Assembly: GCF_044647545.1 (NCBI RefSeq)
Contig: NZ_CP172818.1
DNA length: 64,000 bases
Reading direction: 5' to 3' (one strand)
From: Escherichia coli
Lineage (GTDB): Bacteria > Pseudomonadota > Gammaproteobacteria > Enterobacterales > Enterobacteriaceae
Shown here: piece after piece, positions 1-60,602 of the stretch
Numbering within the stretch: the first letter of the stretch is position 1
Layout of the letters: the number at the start of each line of letters is the position of its first letter
Made by a program: the position numbers and the translations under genes
Notes under the pieces: model-generated
Told to the model about the DNA's origin: nothing
The model's input: the letters and a program-made list of their open reading frames with translations, nothing else
Databases searched by the model: none

Positions 1-428
1 TCGACCGTTATGTTACCTACGCGGATTTCTGGATTCAGGATCAGGAGTATCGTGATCCGGATACCGGGCAGTTGTTTGACCGCGAGTCTCTTAACGCCGA
101 GCTGGAGAAAATCGAGAAACCGGCGGGGATCAGTAATCCAAAAGATTTCCGCAACGAGATTGTTAACTTCGTACTGCGCGCCAGAGCGAATAACAGCGGA
201 CGCAATCCGAACTGGACCAGCTATGAAAAACTGCGCACGGTTATTGAGAAGAAAATGTTCTCCAATACCGAGGAGCTGTTGCCGGTTATTTCGTTTAACG
301 CCAAAACGTCAACCGACGAGCAGAAGAAACATGACGACTTTGTCGACCGTATGATGGAAAAAGGCTACACCCGTAAACAGGTGCGTTTACTGTGCGAATG
401 GTATTTGCGCGTACGTAAATCGTCTTAA
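1..428 (+). CDS. yeaG: PrkA-family serine protein kinase YeaG, C-terminal fragment (5' end outside window)
   Basis: Frame is open from the window edge and ends ...EWYLRVRKSS at stop 426-428; ORF track 72..428 is its internal-Met tail; yeaH follows as in K-12. Confidence 0.85.
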   Translation, partial: DRYVTYADFWIQDQEYRDPDTGQLFDRESLNAELEKIEKPAGISNPKDFRNEIVNFVLRARANNSGRNPNWTSYEKLRTVIEKKMFSNTEELLPVISFNAKTSTDEQKKHDDFVDRMMEKGYTRKQVRLLCEWYLRVRKSS

Positions 429-19766: not shown

Positions 19767-19795
19767 TCAAAAAAAACGCCGGATTAACCGGCGTC
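19767..19795 (-). terminator. Rho-independent terminator after fadD
   Basis: Minus strand reads ACGCCGGTTAATCCGGCGT followed by T8. Confidence 0.6.
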
Positions 19796-19813
19796 TGACG
19801 ACTGACTTAACGC

Positions 19814-21499
19814 TCAGGCTTTATTGTCCACTTTGCCGCGCGCTTCGTCACGTAATTCTCGTCGCAAAATTTTTCCGACGTTAGATTTCGGTAACTCATC
19901 ACGAAACTCCACCAGCTTCGGTACTTTGTAGCCCGTGAGCTGACGGCGGCAAAAGGTCACCAGTGACTCTTCGGTAAGCGATGGATCTTTTTTCACTACG
20001 AAGATTTTCACCGCTTCACCACTGGAGCCGGAAGGTACGCCAACAGCCGCGACTTCCTGTACGCCAGGATGCTGCATGACGACATCTTCAATCTCGTTGG
20101 GATAGACGTTAAAACCGGAAACCAGAATCATGTCTTTTTTACGATCGACAATGCGCAGGAATCCTTCTTCATCCATCACCGCGATGTCGCCGGTGTGTAA
20201 CCAGCCATTTTTGATGATTTCATCGGTAGCATCCGGACGCTGCCAGTAACCCAGCATCACCTGCGGTCCTTTGACACAAAGCTCACCTGGTTGACCCGGT
20301 GGTACTTCGTTGTCGTCGTCATCCACCAGTTTGGCTTCCGTCGACGGCACCGGCAAACCGATGCTACCACTATGATAATCAATATCATACGGGTTAACGC
20401 TGACCAGCGGCGCACACTCGGTCAGGCCATAACCTTCCAGCAGATACTGTCCAGTCAGTTTCACCCAACGTTCTGCCACCACTTGCTGAACAGGCATCCC
20501 TCCGCCTGCGGAAAGATGCAGACTGGAGAAATCCAGCTGCTGGAACTCTTTATTGTTCAGCAACGCATTGAACAAGGTGTTAACGCCAGTGATAGCGGTA
20601 AACGGATATTTCGCTAACTCTTTTACCAACCCTGGAATATCGCGCGGGTTAGTGATAAGCAGGTTCTGCCCACCCAGTTCGATAAACAGCAGGCAGTTAA
20701 TGGTCAGGGCAAAAATGTGATACAGCGGCAGCGCCGTCACCACCAGCTCTTTGCCCGGATGCAACAGCGGACCATAGGTCGCGTTAACCTGTTCCAGGTT
20801 CGCCAGCATATTGCGGTGAGTCAGCATCGCGCCTTTCGCCACACCAGTGGTACCGCCGGTGTATTGCAGGAAAGCTAAATCTTCCGGCACCAGTTCGGGT
20901 TTGACGTACTGCATCCGGTAGCCGCTGTGCAGGGCGCTACGAAATGAAATGGCATCTGGCAGATGGTATTTCGGCACCAGACGCTTGATGTATTTAACAA
21001 CGAAATTGACTACCGTGCCTTTTGCCGTAGATAGCTGATCGCCCATACGGGTCAGAATTACGTGCTGAACGGCGGTTTTATCAACCACTTTTTCCAGAGT
21101 GTGGGCAAAGTTAGACACGATAACAATCGCCGATGCGCCGCTATCGTTAAGCTGATGCTCAAGTTCACGCGGGGTATACAACGGGTTAACGTTTACGACA
21201 ATCATCCCGGCACGCAAAATGCCAAACAGCGCCACCGGATATTGCAATAAATTAGGCATCATCAACGCAACGCGATCGCCTTTCTTCAGTCCCAACCCTT
21301 GTTGCAAATAAGCGGCAAACGCGCGACTGCGTTCTTCCAGTTTGCGGAAGGTCATCACCTCCCCCATATTCACAAACGCGGGTTGATCGGCGTAGCGCGC
21401 GACCGACTGCTCAAACATATCTACCAGAGATTGATAACGGTCAGGGTTGATCTCCGTCGGAACGTCCGCGGGATAACGGTTAAGCCAAACCTTCTTCAA
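19814..21499 (-). CDS. fadD: Long-chain fatty acyl-CoA synthetase
   Basis: AMP-binding signature ([15 protein letters not shown]); 561 aa from a non-ATG start (LKKVWLNRY...); ORF track Met at 21565 is upstream of it. Confidence 0.9.
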
Positions 21500-38796: not shown

Positions 38797-38889
38797 GACA
38801 ACTCCGGCAGGATACTAAAGGCCGCAAGTGTAACGCGAATCACGCGGCGGGCAAATATCCGAACGCCTGGAGCGAAGATAAAGCAAAGT

Positions 38890-38916
38890 AAAAAGCCTCG
38901 CATTCGGCGAGGCTTT
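38890..38916 (-). terminator. Rho-independent terminator after cspC
   Basis: Minus strand reads GCCTCGCCGAATGCGAGGC followed by a T run. Confidence 0.6.
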
Positions 38917-38961
38917 ATAGCGAGATTGAAGCGTATTCACACTTCAGATCAGTGGATTCGA

Positions 38962-39171
38962 TCAGATAGCTGTTACGTTAACAGCTGCCGGACCTTTCTG
39001 GCCGTCCTGAATTTCGAACTCAACGTTCTGACCTTCAGCCAGAGTTTTGAAGCCATTACCCTGGATAGCGGAGAAGTGTACGAACACGTCTTTGCTGCCA
39101 TCAGCCGGAGTAATGAAGCCAAAACCTTTAGACTCGTTGAACCACTTAACCTGACCTTTAATCTTTGCCAT
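38962..39171 (-). CDS. cspC: Cold-shock-domain protein CspC
   Basis: 69-aa [23 protein letters not shown]... with RNP1/RNP2 motifs. Confidence 0.95.
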
Positions 39172-39183
39172 TTGAAAAATTCC

Positions 39184-39327
39184 TTAGATTGTTTTCTTCG
39201 CCCGCAGGCATAACATAGATAAAACTGACACATTACTGCATGAGGCACCAATATAAGGCTCGGCAGAGAAGCGGTATTCAACGTCAACGTGTTTACTCAG
39301 GACTTCTTTACTGAAAATGCCACACAT
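39184..39327 (-). CDS. yobF: Small protein YobF (47 aa), co-oriented just upstream of cspC
   Basis: Hand-translated: [47 protein letters not shown]. Confidence 0.65.
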
Positions 39328-39996
39328 AAACAGAACTGTACCTCGTTTAACCCGAAATCTGTTATCACATACAACGTTAATTATGGCAAGCCATTTTTAA
39401 ACATGTCTCGATCAGACGCACAAATCTCGATACGTCTTCCACTTTTTTTGCACACTTATGCAACGGAATACGCGCCGATATATCATTGTGCTTAACCTTG
39501 CCAGTTCAGGCAGATACTTAAACTGACGTATTTTCTAACATAGTTCAATAAGTTCAGTTGTTCCAGGCCAGTGGGAGAAGTTATTACATAGTGCGTGCAA
39601 TATCACATTTTCTGCTATGCAATGAATAAAAAGTTATATCACTTTTTCTCATAAAACAGTCAGTTAACGGCCACCAATTACCCCAAAGAGAAGTCAATCC
39701 CCAATGGTATTGTAAATTTAAAATAAGAAAAATTGATGAATGCGCAAAAAAATCAAGAGAGAAACGTTTCGCTAATAAATAATACCATGCTTAATCACAA
39801 ATCCGATGTAAACATCCTAATAAATTAATGGGCTAAATATCTTTTTCTGATATCCCGTTACGCAAATAAATAATATGATAATTATTTGAAGTCAGACCAG
39901 AGTTTTAATTTGAAGCAGTTGCACCATGACAGTGCGTATAATCAGGATGAATTGAGTAACCCTTCAACGACGGGGTTACTCAAGATTGAGGAAGGA

Positions 39997-53398: not shown

Positions 53399-53515
53399 CA
53401 GCGCACAAAAAAAGCGCACTTTTTGACTGGCACATTCGGCTGCCTCAACTAGGCTGAAAAATGGTGCGATCGGACTGGTCGTACCACAATCGGCAGCTAA
53501 ATGGAGAGCACGAAG

Positions 53516-53752
53516 ATGAAAACCAGTGTGCGCATAGGCGCTTTTGAAATCGACGACGGCGAATTACACGGCGAATCGCCGGGTGATCGAACGTTAACCA
53601 TTCCTTGTAAATCAGACCCCGATTTATGTATGCAACTGGATGCCTGGGATGCTGAAACCAGTATCCCTGCCCTGCTAAATGGCGAACACTCTGTCCTTTA
53701 CCGTACCCGTTACGATCAACAATCTGATGCCTGGATTATGCGTCTTGCCTGA
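53516..53752 (+). CDS. yebV: Small protein YebV
   Basis: 78 aa from the Met at 53516 (MKTSVRIGAF...). Confidence 0.75.
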   Translation: MKTSVRIGAFEIDDGELHGESPGDRTLTIPCKSDPDLCMQLDAWDAETSIPALLNGEHSVLYRTRYDQQSDAWIMRLA

Positions 53753-53856
53753 TCCAAAAAGAACCCGTCGGCATGGCGGGTTATTTGTCCTGGTTATTCC
53801 CCCGTTGTAAAATCTCACCTAAACTTAACGGTACGGCACCACACTTCGGGGATGAA

Positions 53857-54048
53857 ATGTTCGCGCTGGTACTTTTTGTTTGCTACCTGGATGGCGGTTG
53901 TGAAGATATTGTTGTGGATGTCTACAACACGGAACAGCAGTGTCTTTATTCTATGAGCGATCAACGGATCCGCCATGGCGGTTGTTTTCCGATTGAGGAT
54001 TTTATAGATGGTTTCTGGCGACCTGCACAGGAATACGGTGATTTTTAA
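53857..54048 (+). CDS. yebW: Small protein YebW
   Basis: 63 aa from the internal Met (MFALVLFVCYLDGG...). Confidence 0.7.
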   Translation: MFALVLFVCYLDGGCEDIVVDVYNTEQQCLYSMSDQRIRHGGCFPIEDFIDGFWRPAQEYGDF

Positions 54049-54705
54049 TTATTGCAATTGCACAACAGTCAGTTCGCCCCCAAAGACAGCACCGGTATCA
54101 ATATAATGCAGGTTGCCAATATCCACGCGATGGCGCAACGGTGTATGACCAAACCAGAAATGATCAGCACCTGTAATTCCCTGCCCTTTTTGGCGTTCAC
54201 CTAATCGCGAGCGGCTCCACAAGACCTGATGCAAATCAACGTCCTTTTGCCATTCATAAACATCATCCGGATAATCGGCATGGGCAATAACATGTTTGCC
54301 GGTGCGACTGTGTACTTCAAGAATAAAGGGCAAATACTGACATTTTTCCAGCGCCGTTTTCGCTTGTTTCTGTTGATAATCTGCCAGCGCAATAAACCAG
54401 TCGCCGCCATTCATCAACCATAAAGACATCTGCCGGGATGCCAGCGCATCCATCGCCATCTGTTCATGATTGCCTCTTACCGCACGAACCCAATGTTGTT
54501 CCAGTAACTGCAGGCAACGTAAACTTTGCGGCCCACGATCGATAACGTCTCCCACTGAGATAAGTAAATCTCGCCACGGATCAAAACGACAATGCCATAA
54601 TTTGCGGCGCAACTGCTCAAGACAACCGTGTATATCGCCTGAAAGCCAGATATGTCGCCATTGATGACCCGCAATTCTCTGATAAACGGGCGCAGGCTGT
54701 TTCAT
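54049..54705 (-). CDS. pphA: Ser/Thr protein phosphatase 1 (PPP family) PphA/PrpA
   Basis: About 218-aa ORF with metallophosphatase motifs (GDIHG, GDVIDRG, GNHE). Confidence 0.85.
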   Translation of the reverse strand: MKQPAPVYQRIAGHQWRHIWLSGDIHGCLEQLRRKLWHCRFDPWRDLLISVGDVIDRGPQSLRCLQLLEQHWVRAVRGNHEQMAMDALASRQMSLWLMNGGDWFIALADYQQKQAKTALEKCQYLPFILEVHSRTGKHVIAHADYPDDVYEWQKDVDLHQVLWSRSRLGERQKGQGITGADHFWFGHTPLRHRVDIGNLHYIDTGAVFGGELTVVQLQ

Positions 54706-54799
54706 CAATATTTTCCTCCCGCGCTAAAGATCACATAATCTTAACAAGAATGTTAAAAAACGCTGGACTCAGACAGTAGAGTGTGTGTTATGGTTGACT

Positions 54800-55072
54800 A
54801 TAAAGTCAGCGAAGGGAATGCTTCTGGCTTTTAACAGATAAAAAGAGACCGAACACGATTCCTGTATTCGGTCCAGGGAAATGGCTCTTGGGAGAGAGCC
54901 GTGCGCTAAAAGTTGGCATTAATGCAGGCTTAGTTGCCTTGCCCTTTAAGAATAGATGACGACGCCAGGTTTTCCAGTTTGCGTGCAAAATGGTCAATAA
55001 AAAGCGCGGTGGTCATCAGCTTAAATGTTAAAAACCGCCCGTTCTGGTGAAAGAACTGAGGCGGTTTTTTTA
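54800..55072 (+). ncRNA. ryeA: sRNA RyeA (SraC), antisense to SdsR (5' end not determined)
   Basis: Plus-strand terminator at about 55032-55072 (CCGCC...GGCGG then T7) downstream of the SdsR locus, consistent with the known cis-antisense arrangement. Confidence 0.35.
54840..54942 (-). ncRNA. sdsR: sRNA SdsR (RyeB)
   Basis: Minus strand reads GCAAGGCAACTAAGCCTGCATTAATGCCAACTTTTAGCGCACGGCTCTCTCCCAAGAGCCATTTCCCTGGACCGAATACAGGAATCGTGTTCGGTCTCTTTTT, matching the remembered SdsR sequence including terminator hairpin and U-tail; boundaries within a few nt. Confidence 0.65.
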
Positions 55073-55100
55073 TTGGAAATCAAAAGGCTATTTTAGGTAA

Positions 55101-55442
55101 TTAACAGAGTTTTTCAGCTCGTTCTATAAACGGTGCCAGACTCATTTTTTCGCCGGGATTGTTAGGATCATCAATCTGAATCACCGAAATGGGTTGGGCT
55201 TTAGTCTTCCCACTGGCAACTTCCTTTTGTGCGATATCGTTTAAAGGATACTGCACGAGGGTACTTGGGTTAATGACATACAAAGCATTACCTGGTCGGC
55301 AAGTCAGCATCACCTCTTCGCGATTAAACGCCCATTTGTCTTTACCCACTTCAAAACGGCTGACGGTAATCACCTGCGGTGCAGCCAGCGCCGCTGCAGA
55401 ACTGGTGAGTAACAGAAACGCCAGAATACTTTTTTTCATCAT
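55101..55442 (-). CDS. yebY: DUF2511 periplasmic protein YebY
   Basis: 113-aa ORF with signal peptide; last gene of yobA-yebZ-yebY. Confidence 0.85.
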
Positions 55443-55454
55443 TTTCGTAATCCA

Positions 55455-56327
55455 TCAAAAAGGTTCGAGAGTCGCAAGCAGGCTGATGATCACCAGCACT
55501 ACCGCACCTATCGCCCATTCGAGTTTAGTCATCCACACAAACCAGGGTGCCGCACGATCTTCATCCTGCCTCATGCGCGGTACAAGAACATAACGATTAG
55601 CCAGCGCGATGACCACCATAATCATCACCAGGATGGCTTTGAGCAATAAGAGTTGGCCCCAGTAAGTCGTAAGCGTGGGGGGAAATCCGGTAATCAACAA
55701 TGCATTAAGCACGCCGCTTGCCAGTACGCCGATCACCGCAAAATGCCCGCACCAGGAAAAACGCATCAGCGCCTGAATAGCCTGGTATCGCCAACGGCCT
55801 TTGATGAGTTGCATACACCAGAGCACCGGCAGTAATCCCCCAAACCACGCCGCCGCACAAATCAGGTGAATCGCGTGATTAGTCTGATGGATTTTCGCCG
55901 TTACCCCTTCATTCAGCGTCGCATGCCCGACTCCCGCCAGCAGAAAAAATTGCGCGGTAGTGAGCATAAACAGCAAAAGTGGCATATTCCGCGGTTGCAT
56001 AAGGGCGACGATCAACGTTACGAGGGCGAGAACAATTTGCCATAACCAGACGCCACCAAACTGCGTTTGCAAAACAGCCTGCCAAATGTTTGGCGAAAAT
56101 ACATCTGACCATCCCGTTCCCATCAACCCGCCCTGAACGGCGAGCATTGCAGTGGCACTGATCAAACTCCAGACGGCAGCGTGCTGTTGTAAACGCAGAA
56201 AACGCTTCGTCAGCAAGCGACGAATCGTTAAGGGGGCCAGCCAGGCACCGTACATTGCGAAGCCAAAAACCAGCATCAGCGAGGTGAAATGGATAAATCG
56301 CAGCGCGATCCAGGTAAACGCCAGCAT
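55455..56327 (-). CDS. yebZ: CopD-family inner-membrane protein YebZ
   Basis: 290-aa, roughly 8-TM ORF. Confidence 0.85.
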   Translation of the reverse strand: MLAFTWIALRFIHFTSLMLVFGFAMYGAWLAPLTIRRLLTKRFLRLQQHAAVWSLISATAMLAVQGGLMGTGWSDVFSPNIWQAVLQTQFGGVWLWQIVLALVTLIVALMQPRNMPLLLFMLTTAQFFLLAGVGHATLNEGVTAKIHQTNHAIHLICAAAWFGGLLPVLWCMQLIKGRWRYQAIQALMRFSWCGHFAVIGVLASGVLNALLITGFPPTLTTYWGQLLLLKAILVMIMVVIALANRYVLVPRMRQDEDRAAPWFVWMTKLEWAIGAVVLVIISLLATLEPF

Positions 56328-56330
56328 GAT

Positions 56331-56705
56331 TTATTTCACGCTAAAGGTGTAGTGTCCTTTCGTTTTATGCCCGTCCACCGAAACAACATGCCAGTTAACG
56401 GTGTAGGTTCCGGGTTTCAGCGAATCGGCCAGTGGAACAATCAGTTGCTTTTGGTCCTGCTCATTCCGCTTCGCCGGTAATGTTTTAATATTTTCGTTTT
56501 TTGGCCCCGTGATTTTTGCACCACTGAATCCTGTTTCAACGCCTTCCGAGAAGTTTAAAGTGATTGCCTGCGGAGCTGCTGTCACTTGTGCATTTGCTGC
56601 AGGATACTGATGCATTAAATGCGCATGTGCCCAGACGGAAGGTGTCACCAACGAAGTGGTCAGGATTGCCAGCGCGTAGCGAAGGGAGCGTGCAGTTGAA
56701 GCCAT
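56331..56705 (-). CDS. yobA: CopC-family periplasmic copper-binding protein YobA
   Basis: 124-aa ORF; signal peptide ending ...VWA followed by HAHL (N-terminal His of mature protein) and a DGHK motif. Confidence 0.85.
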   Translation of the reverse strand: MASTARSLRYALAILTTSLVTPSVWAHAHLMHQYPAANAQVTAAPQAITLNFSEGVETGFSGAKITGPKNENIKTLPAKRNEQDQKQLIVPLADSLKPGTYTVNWHVVSVDGHKTKGHYTFSVK

Positions 56706-56843
56706 ATTATCTATTCCTTTTTGTAATAACTTTTTTACAGAGCATAACCTTGTCTAATGTCTGAGTCGAGGATCATCAATTCCGGCTTGCCATCCAGGCT
56801 CACTCTTAGTAACTTTTGCCCGCGAATGATGAGGAGATTAAGA

Positions 56844-57074
56844 ATGCTGAAGAATCTGGCTAAACTGGATCAAACAGAAATGGATAAAGTGAATGTCGAT
56901 TTGGCGGCGGCAGGGGTTGCATTTAAAGAACGCTACAATATGCCGGTGATCGCTGAAGCGGTTGAACGTGAACAGCCTGAACATTTGCGCAGCTGGTTTC
57001 GCGAGCGGCTTATCGCCCACCGTTTGGCTTCAGTCAATCTGTCACGTTTACCTTACGAGCCCAAACTTAAATAA
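56844..57074 (+). CDS. holE: DNA polymerase III theta subunit
   Basis: 76 aa from the Met at 56844 ([24 protein letters not shown]...) after GAGGAG SD. Confidence 0.9.
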
Positions 57075-57175
57075 AACTTATACATAGTTACACTTTCTTA
57101 CATAACGCCTGCTAAATTATGAGTATTTTCTAAACCGCACCCATAATTTGCAGTCATTTTGAAAAGGAAGTCATT

Positions 57176-57832
57176 ATGTCGTTCTGGAAAGTTGCAGCAG
57201 CGCAATATGAGCCTCGTAAAACCTCACTCACCGAACAGGTAGCTCATCATCTGGAGTTTGTGAGGGCCGCCGCCAGGCAACAATGTCAGCTGTTAGTTTT
57301 TCCATCGCTTTCTTTACTGGGGTGTGATTATTCGCGACGTGCCCTTCCTGCCCCACCCGATCTCTCGCTATTAGACCCGCTGTGTTAAGCTGCAACGACC
57401 TGGCGAATGACTATCATTGCCGGTCTTCCCGTTGAATATAACGATCGCTTTATTCGTGGAATTGCGGTGTTCGCACCGTGGCGAAAAACGCCAGGGATCT
57501 ACCATCAGAGTCATGGTGCATGTCTGGGCCGTCGTTCCAGAACCATCACGGTGGTCGATGAACAACCGGAAGGTATGGATATGGACCCGACCTGTTCACT
57601 GTTTACGACAGGGCAATGTCTGGGAGAACCCGACCTGCTGGCTTCGGCCCGTCGCTTACAATTTTTTTCACATCAGTACTCGATTGCTGTGCTGATGGCA
57701 AATGCCCGTGGTAACAGTGCACTATGGGATGAACATGGTCGTCTCATCGTTCGCGCCGATCGTGGTTCATTATTGTTAGTCGGTCAGCGTTCATCACAGG
57801 GTTGGCAAGGCGATATCATTCCATTACGCTAG
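57176..57832 (+). pseudogene. yobB: C-N hydrolase-family gene yobB interrupted by an in-frame TAA at 57386-57388
   Basis: ORFs 57176..57388 and 57407..57832 share one frame; the span is exactly 219 codons, matching the 218-aa length remembered for K-12 YobB; a single stop (..LLDPLC*AATTWRMTIIAG..) breaks it. Confidence 0.55.
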
Positions 57833-57855
57833 GCTTTTTCGGCCTGGAGCATGCC

Positions 57856-60602
<2,747 letters not shown>

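Follow-up and report, generated by a model that had tools for sequence, protein, structure and literature searches.

Results

Gene content and conservation of the locus

The window (the whole stretch of Escherichia coli DNA that was analysed, 64,000 nucleotides) contains on its minus strand the three genes yobA, yebZ and yebY, whose open reading frames follow one another and exactly fill positions 55101-56705 in an ORF listing made over 53500-58500 (Table 1). Only 3 nt (TAA-ATC-ATG) separate yobA from yebZ, and 12 nt lie between yebZ and yebY. The order is that of an AZY-type operon (copC-copD-DUF2511), with all genes on the minus strand and a single probable terminator after yebY, and yobA-yebZY has been handled as one operon in transcriptomics (PMC3688515). 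The names and families given to the three genes in a preliminary description of this DNA were correct, in that Pfam, NCBIfam and the RefSeq and K-12 annotations all agree on them, and the locus is confirmed as the E. coli AZY (yobA-yebZ-yebY) operon.

By megablast, the 2.4 kb from 54700 to 57100 were present at an identity of at least 95% in 5425 of 5426 complete E. coli genomes, and the locus is therefore far beyond chance. Several strains, e.g. FDAARGOS_497, were 100% identical over this region, and in these strains RefSeq annotates yebY, copD and yobA with pphA and holE at the flanks. The annotation of K-12 MG1655 has the same layout, running through pphA, ryeA/sdsR, yebY, yebZ, yobA, holE, yobB and exoX.

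Table 1. Features of the AZY locus and of other parts of the window (nucleotide positions are those of the window; residue numbers are given for YebZ).
Feature	Position	Strand	Description	Basis
yobA	56331-56705	-	124 aa, CopC family	ORF listing, Pfam, NCBIfam
yebZ	55455-56327	-	290 aa, CopD family	ORF listing, Pfam, NCBIfam
yebY	55101-55442	-	113 aa, DUF2511	ORF listing, Pfam
YebZ hydrophobic segments	residues ~7-35, 51-69, 88-110, 115-133, 153-171, 196-214, 225-243, 269-287		eight segments	Kyte-Doolittle, 19-residue scan
FnrS-complementary site	56702-56745	-	yobA 5′ leader, Shine-Dalgarno AAGGAA and start codon; predicted	RNAduplex
Inverted repeat TGTAAA-N6-ATTACA	56722-56739	-	-34 to -17 from the yobA ATG	read from sequence
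yobA (-)/holE (+) divergent intergenic region	56706-56843		138 bp; 1 nt differs from K-12	
GC-rich hairpin between A-run and T-run	55030-55069	both	probable terminator	RNA fold
SraC/RyeA	54836-54980	+	antisense sRNA pair with SdsR/RyeB, 175 bits	
SdsR/RyeB	54840-54939	-	antisense sRNA pair with SraC/RyeA, 114 bits	
pphA	54049-54708	-	219 aa, TTG start	ORF listing
yobB	57176-57832	+	carbon-nitrogen hydrolase family	
cspA thermoregulator match	38887-39347	-	137.6 bits, full model	Rfam
sroD sRNA match	19770-19855	-	115.2 bits, full length	Rfam

Some observations concern genes outside the operon. The pphA reading frame is one codon longer than the 657-nt gene of K-12 and RefSeq, which is simply the ORF-listing rule and carries no biological meaning. 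In yobB there is an in-frame TAA at 57386-57388 that replaces Tyr71 with a stop (TAT to TAA) and is absent from K-12 and FDAARGOS_497; the 60-mer around it was found exactly in one of 5426 complete E. coli genomes, that of strain EC11, isolated from the human gut in Spain, whose yobB RefSeq lists as a pseudogene and flags with "internal stop". Elsewhere in the window, the match to the cspA thermoregulator presumably represents a gene of the cold-shock family, for example cspC, with its leader and coding region, and there is a further match to the sRNA sroD.

Sequence features of the three proteins

YobA scored 96.9 bits against Pfam CopC (PF04234; cutoff 23.3, E=1.5e-27, residues 27-123), 261.6 bits against the NCBIfam YobA equivalog (cutoff 129) and 140.9 bits against the NCBIfam equivalog named "copper homeostasis periplasmic binding protein CopC" (cutoff 95). 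Its N-terminus reads MASTARSLRYALAILTTSLVTPSVWA|HAHL, with a predicted signal peptide at residues 1-26 (...LVTPSVWA) whose removal would make His27 the first residue of mature YobA, and the C-terminal Asp-x-His pair is present as Asp111-Gly-His113 within VDGHK. A search of solved structures aligned YobA with CopC of Pseudomonas fluorescens (6NFQ, 6TPB), PcoC (1IX2) and CopC of P. syringae (1M42), and also with the CopC domain of YcnJ (9C14) and CopC of M. trichosporium (5ICU). The mature CopC chains of 6TPB and 9C14 start at the column of YobA His27, VDGHK is matched by VDTHK in the P. fluorescens protein, and the site mutants deposited for that protein fall in the same three columns (6NFS, His1 to Phe, at His27; 6NFR, His to Phe, at His113; 7BK7, Asp to Asn, at Asp111). 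In this alignment His27, Asp111 and His113 coincide with the residues that bind Cu(II) in crystallised CopC. The preliminary description had called YobA CopC-like on account of a signal peptide, an N-terminal HAHL and a DGHK motif and had proposed alignment with characterised CopC as a check; the three residues were found, and their positions are conserved relative to the crystallised P. fluorescens protein.

The Met-rich Cu(I) site of the two-site CopC/PcoC subclass was not found in mature YobA, which, with one Met (M31, a Thr in K-12) and no Cys, cannot carry a site of the PcoC type. T31M and D104N are the only differences from K-12 YobA. Published measurements are available for the protein: isothermal titration calorimetry (ITC) gave a Kd of ~3 nM for the single Cu2+ taken up by YobA, and Cu+ was not bound (Hadley et al. 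2021, PMC8689200), its affinity for Zn, Ni, Co and Hg is 100-1000-fold weaker than for Cu2+, and mature YobA of ~11 kDa has been purified from the periplasm (PMC8689200).

YebZ matched Pfam CopD (PF05425) over residues 185-284 with 93.3 bits (cutoff 32.1, E=1.5e-26) and the NCBIfam CopD equivalog (NF033808) over residues 4-290 with 296.1 bits (cutoff 195). Eight separate hydrophobic segments were detected by hydropathy, a crude method, and these segments together with profile matches above the cutoffs uphold the earlier view of YebZ as a CopD-like protein with eight transmembrane (TM) segments. Two conserved histidines occur in 99% of 8-TM CopDs and have been defined and mutated (PMC11923076); YebZ retains His135 (GVGHATL) and His154 (HAIHLIC). 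A PDB sequence search with YebZ gave zero matches, i.e. no solved structure of the CopD family.

Nucleotide differences from K-12 were also tallied by gene. In yebZ six of ten are nonsynonymous (A40T, T74S, I93V, R117L, I128F, H181Y), as compared with two of nine in yobA and one of seven in yebY. These numbers are small, and the nonsynonymous share in yebZ hints that some parts of YebZ are less constrained, with His135 and His154 unaffected.

YebY scored 152.3 bits against Pfam DUF2511 (PF10709; cutoff 21, E=4.8e-45), has a signal peptide at residues 1-20 and contains Cys48 and Cys113. Residues 21-113 are identical to residues 1-93 of the PDB chain 7N0J at 92 of 93 positions, the single difference being N81K, which is also the change relative to K-12 YebY. 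The 7N0J entry is the crystal structure of YebY at 1.8 Å, which is MlbQ-like and stabilised by a Cys48-Cys113 disulfide (PMC8689200). The protein is periplasmic and monomeric and binds metals weakly, copper in particular at 50-100 µM and only in the reduced state (PMC8689200). The first description of YebY as a small periplasmic partner of unknown function therefore stands in its first part but not in its second, given the published structure and a published proposal that YebY is a negative modulator. Taken together, the three proteins have every sequence-testable defining feature of a Cu(II)-only CopC, an 8-TM, two-His CopD and a DUF2511 protein.

Predicted regulatory sites and the end of the operon

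The promoter of the operon presumably lies in the divergent intergenic region that separates yobA from holE. A sigma-70 consensus scan of 54700-57100 gave no convincing promoter upstream of yobA or in this intergenic region; two matches of the scan were intragenic or downstream and no commoner than in shuffled sequence, and were rejected.

Between -40 and +4, a stretch that takes in AAGGAA and the AUG, the yobA leader is strongly complementary to nt 37-74 of FnrS. With RNAduplex, FnrS 36-75 paired with yobA -40 to +10 at -25.3 kcal/mol, compared with -10.9 ± 2.8 kcal/mol in 1000 dinucleotide shuffles, none of which was as low (0/1000). Positions -18 to -8 of yobA read CAAAAAGGAAU, and their predicted partner is FnrS nt ~52-62. 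A calculation with full-length FnrS against 90 nt returned a duplex of 90 nt at -51.6 kcal/mol, which is implausibly long and was discarded because RNAduplex ignores intramolecular structure. Previous work placed yobA-yebZY among the FnrS-category, FNR-repressed operons (PMC3688515), and regulation of the operon by FnrS is also stated in PMC8689200. The complementary site is thus a predicted site of anaerobic translational repression by FnrS, with a pairing geometry suggested by the duplex calculation. From -60 to +30, the FnrS region included, the yobA leader is identical to that of K-12.

Overlapping the FnrS-pairing region is the inverted repeat TGTAAA-N6-ATTACA. Its two halves are the published putative "copper box"-like sites, their positions at -34 and -22 matching those given in PMC8689200.

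For the GC-rich hairpin downstream of yebY, the minus-strand RNA folds at -19.8 kcal/mol into a stem CCGCC...GGCGG, after which comes UUUUU; the plus strand reads ...ggcggttttttt. The annotated end of ryeA in K-12 lies 28 nt before the yebY stop. From its sequence and fold, the hairpin is probably a bidirectional intrinsic terminator common to the AZY transcript on the minus strand and the convergent ryeA on the plus strand. It escaped a pattern-based terminator scan because its loop and stem geometry fall outside the scan pattern; the scan returned four matches, three of them weak intragenic matches in yebZ, at chance level, which were rejected. The overlapping antisense sRNA pair RyeA/SdsR lies a short way past the end of the operon, with pphA on one side and yebY on the other, and K-12 annotates the same pair.

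Discussion

The features described above are best explained, with a probability that we put at roughly 0.88, by an AZY copper-acquisition operon in which YobA captures copper, YebZ imports it, YebY acts as a brake and FnrS represses expression. Much of the support comes from published experiments. Overexpression of YebZ raises cellular copper in a copper-specific and glucose-dependent manner (Palmer et al. 2025, PMC11923076), and the H154A mutation abolishes and H135A reduces this uptake (PMC11923076), evidence that consists of overexpression and whole-cell metal content as opposed to a purified, reconstituted transporter. Co-expression of YobA increases YebZ-dependent uptake (PMC11923076). 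In the ΔAZY strain, induction of a CueR-dependent copA reporter is 3-4-fold lower, 80-90% of mar operator activity is lost, and susceptibility to norfloxacin, ciprofloxacin and ampicillin is greater in a copper-dependent way (PMC11923076). The initial suggestion that the three genes form a copper uptake or handling module is thus in agreement with published Cu2+ binding by YobA, uptake by YebZ and the drop in the copA reporter in ΔAZY (PMC8689200, PMC11923076).

A mechanism consistent with these data may be outlined. YobA would be exported to the periplasm, where cleavage of the signal peptide would expose His27 and allow the protein to hold one Cu(II) in a histidine-brace-type site made up of the N-terminal amine, the His27 side chain, Asp111 and His113. 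YobA might then pass copper directly to YebZ, a step for which the published support is an AlphaFold-Multimer model (PMC11923076). YebZ, an inner-membrane protein of eight helices in which the periplasm-facing His135 and His154 are required, would use energy to import the copper; the mode of energy coupling and the oxidation state transported are conjectural elements of this step. Imported copper would feed CueR signalling and the copper-dependent derepression of the mar operon. YebY, locked by its disulfide in an MlbQ-like fold, would dampen YebZ-dependent uptake, and YobA and YebY may in parallel, and independently of YebZ, feed copper to membrane enzymes (NDH-2). The three genes would form one transcript ending at the terminator common to ryeA, and FnrS pairing over the yobA ribosome-binding site would repress the operon anaerobically.

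An alternative explanation could be that the system is mainly a periplasmic copper chaperone loading cuproenzymes such as NDH-2, and that YebZ takes copper into the cytoplasm only as a by-product of being overexpressed. Deletion of yobA or of yebY, but not of yebZ, lowers NDH-2-dependent NADH oxidation by membranes (PMC8689200), the B. subtilis CopC-CopD protein YcnJ supports heme-copper oxidases, and Hadley et al. (2021) themselves concluded that the system serves delivery and is not for import (PMC8689200), a conclusion revised by the same groups in Palmer et al. (2025, PMC11923076). However, the fall in the cytoplasmic CueR-dependent reporter was seen in ΔAZY at native expression levels, the uptake by YebZ is not only specific for copper but dependent on glucose and on the histidines, and activation of mar needs cytoplasmic copper and is lost and chelator-insensitive in ΔAZY (PMC11923076). 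A mainly chaperoning function is very unlikely on this evidence, and the chaperone and import roles are not mutually exclusive.

The role of YebY within the acquisition operon deserves separate consideration. It could be unrelated to copper and, in the manner of MlbQ, bind a peptide or a ligand from the envelope, merely sharing the yobA-yebZ transcript. This would fit with the location of about half of DUF2511 genes outside copC/copD contexts, with the function of the only other studied member, MlbQ, as a lantibiotic self-resistance protein, and with a copper affinity that is low and needs reduction of the structural disulfide (PMC8689200). It fits poorly with the fixed order in which ~52% of representative yebY genes adjoin copD and copC in AZY-type contexts and with the existence of YebZ-YebY fusions (PMC8689200), with the cut in YebZ-dependent copper accumulation when YebY is co-expressed (PMC11923076), with the reduced NDH-2 activity of ΔyebY (PMC8689200), and with the spacing of only 12 nt between yebZ and yebY, and we regard it as unlikely. 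Somewhat more speculatively, and with a low probability of being correct, YebY could be a ligand- or redox-responsive periplasmic regulator that gates copper import from YobA to YebZ. By analogy with MlbQ it might bind a peptide, an antibiotic or an envelope-derived molecule, or alternatively it might sense the thiol/disulfide state of the periplasm through Cys48-Cys113. If true, such gating would link cytoplasmic copper and mar-dependent antibiotic resistance to signals from the envelope or to redox signals.

The AZY system is important as one of few defined bacterial routes for copper into the cytoplasm and as a tie between copper and mar-mediated multidrug resistance in enterobacteria (PMC11923076). 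Its components, the YebY structure, metal binding, the transport role and the link to mar have already been published for this exact locus, and the contribution of the window is only a strain variant with conservative substitutions.

Comparison with known systems

The closest known system is the AZY operon of K-12 itself (yobA b1841, yebZ b1840, yebY b1839), with which locus, gene order, neighbours and gene lengths are all shared. Two amino acids differ in YobA, six in YebZ and one in YebY, the functional residues are untouched, and the differences are strain-level polymorphism only.

Pseudomonas CopC/CopD and the plasmid-borne PcoC/PcoD belong to the same two families and likewise place a periplasmic CopC beta-barrel binder beside a CopD membrane protein. 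It could be proposed from this that the present locus is also a copper-resistance or sequestration module like pcoCD or Pseudomonas copCD, in which YobA buffers periplasmic copper and YebZ aids detoxification, and the score of YobA on the NCBIfam CopC model, the presence of PcoC and P. syringae CopC among its relatives in the PDB and the Pfam name of CopD, "Copper resistance protein D", are in keeping with this. By contrast with copABCD and pcoABCDRSE, however, the AZY locus has no CopA/PcoA multicopper oxidase, outer-membrane CopB/PcoB or two-component regulator (CopRS/PcoRS) nearby, and none of the neighbours of a Cop/Pco determinant was found at its flanks, which are formed by pphA, sdsR/ryeA, holE, yobB and exoX. 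YobA further differs in being a Cu(II)-only protein without a Met-rich Cu(I) site, the operon has an extra DUF2511 partner, and no tolerance phenotype is associated with it (PMC8689200). In published assays ΔAZY grew as wild type from 0 to 2 mM CuSO4, showed no copper-tolerance or oxidant phenotype, and overexpression did not rescue a copA mutant (PMC8689200). Because partner genes are not adjacent, the Cu(I) site is absent and the tolerance assays were negative, the locus is not one of the Cop/Pco resistance determinants, and resistance as its function, largely refuted by those assays, is rejected as extremely improbable. The preliminary description took the lack of any copper-related phenotype as refuting; in deletions that phenotype is not one of tolerance, but published effects do exist on the uptake of copper, on the activity of NDH-2 and on resistance to antibiotics through mar.

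For YebY the relevant comparison is with MlbQ, which functions in self-resistance to the lantibiotic NAI-107 in Microbispora (PDB 2MVO) and has the same DUF2511 fold and disulfide position (PMC8689200). MlbQ is a lipoprotein that has a long linker and whose gene accompanies ABC-transporter genes for lantibiotic immunity, whereas YebY is soluble and periplasmic and is encoded with copC and copD, and the two proteins are 26.9% identical.

In function, the acquisition operon described here resembles the ycnKJI operon of B. subtilis, encoding YcnJ, a CopC-CopD-YtkA fusion, together with YcnI. In both systems a Cu(II) histidine-brace CopC feeds a CopD with a required histidine, and a 2026 study in B. 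subtilis found H295 of YcnJ, the homologous CopD histidine, to be required. Both act in copper acquisition under limitation. CopC and CopD are separate proteins in E. coli but fused in YcnJ, the accessory protein is an inhibitory DUF2511 protein (YebY) in one and a copper chaperone of the DUF1775 family (YcnI) in the other, and the E. coli operon is regulated by FnrS, possibly with copper boxes as well, as opposed to YcnK and CsoR in B. subtilis.
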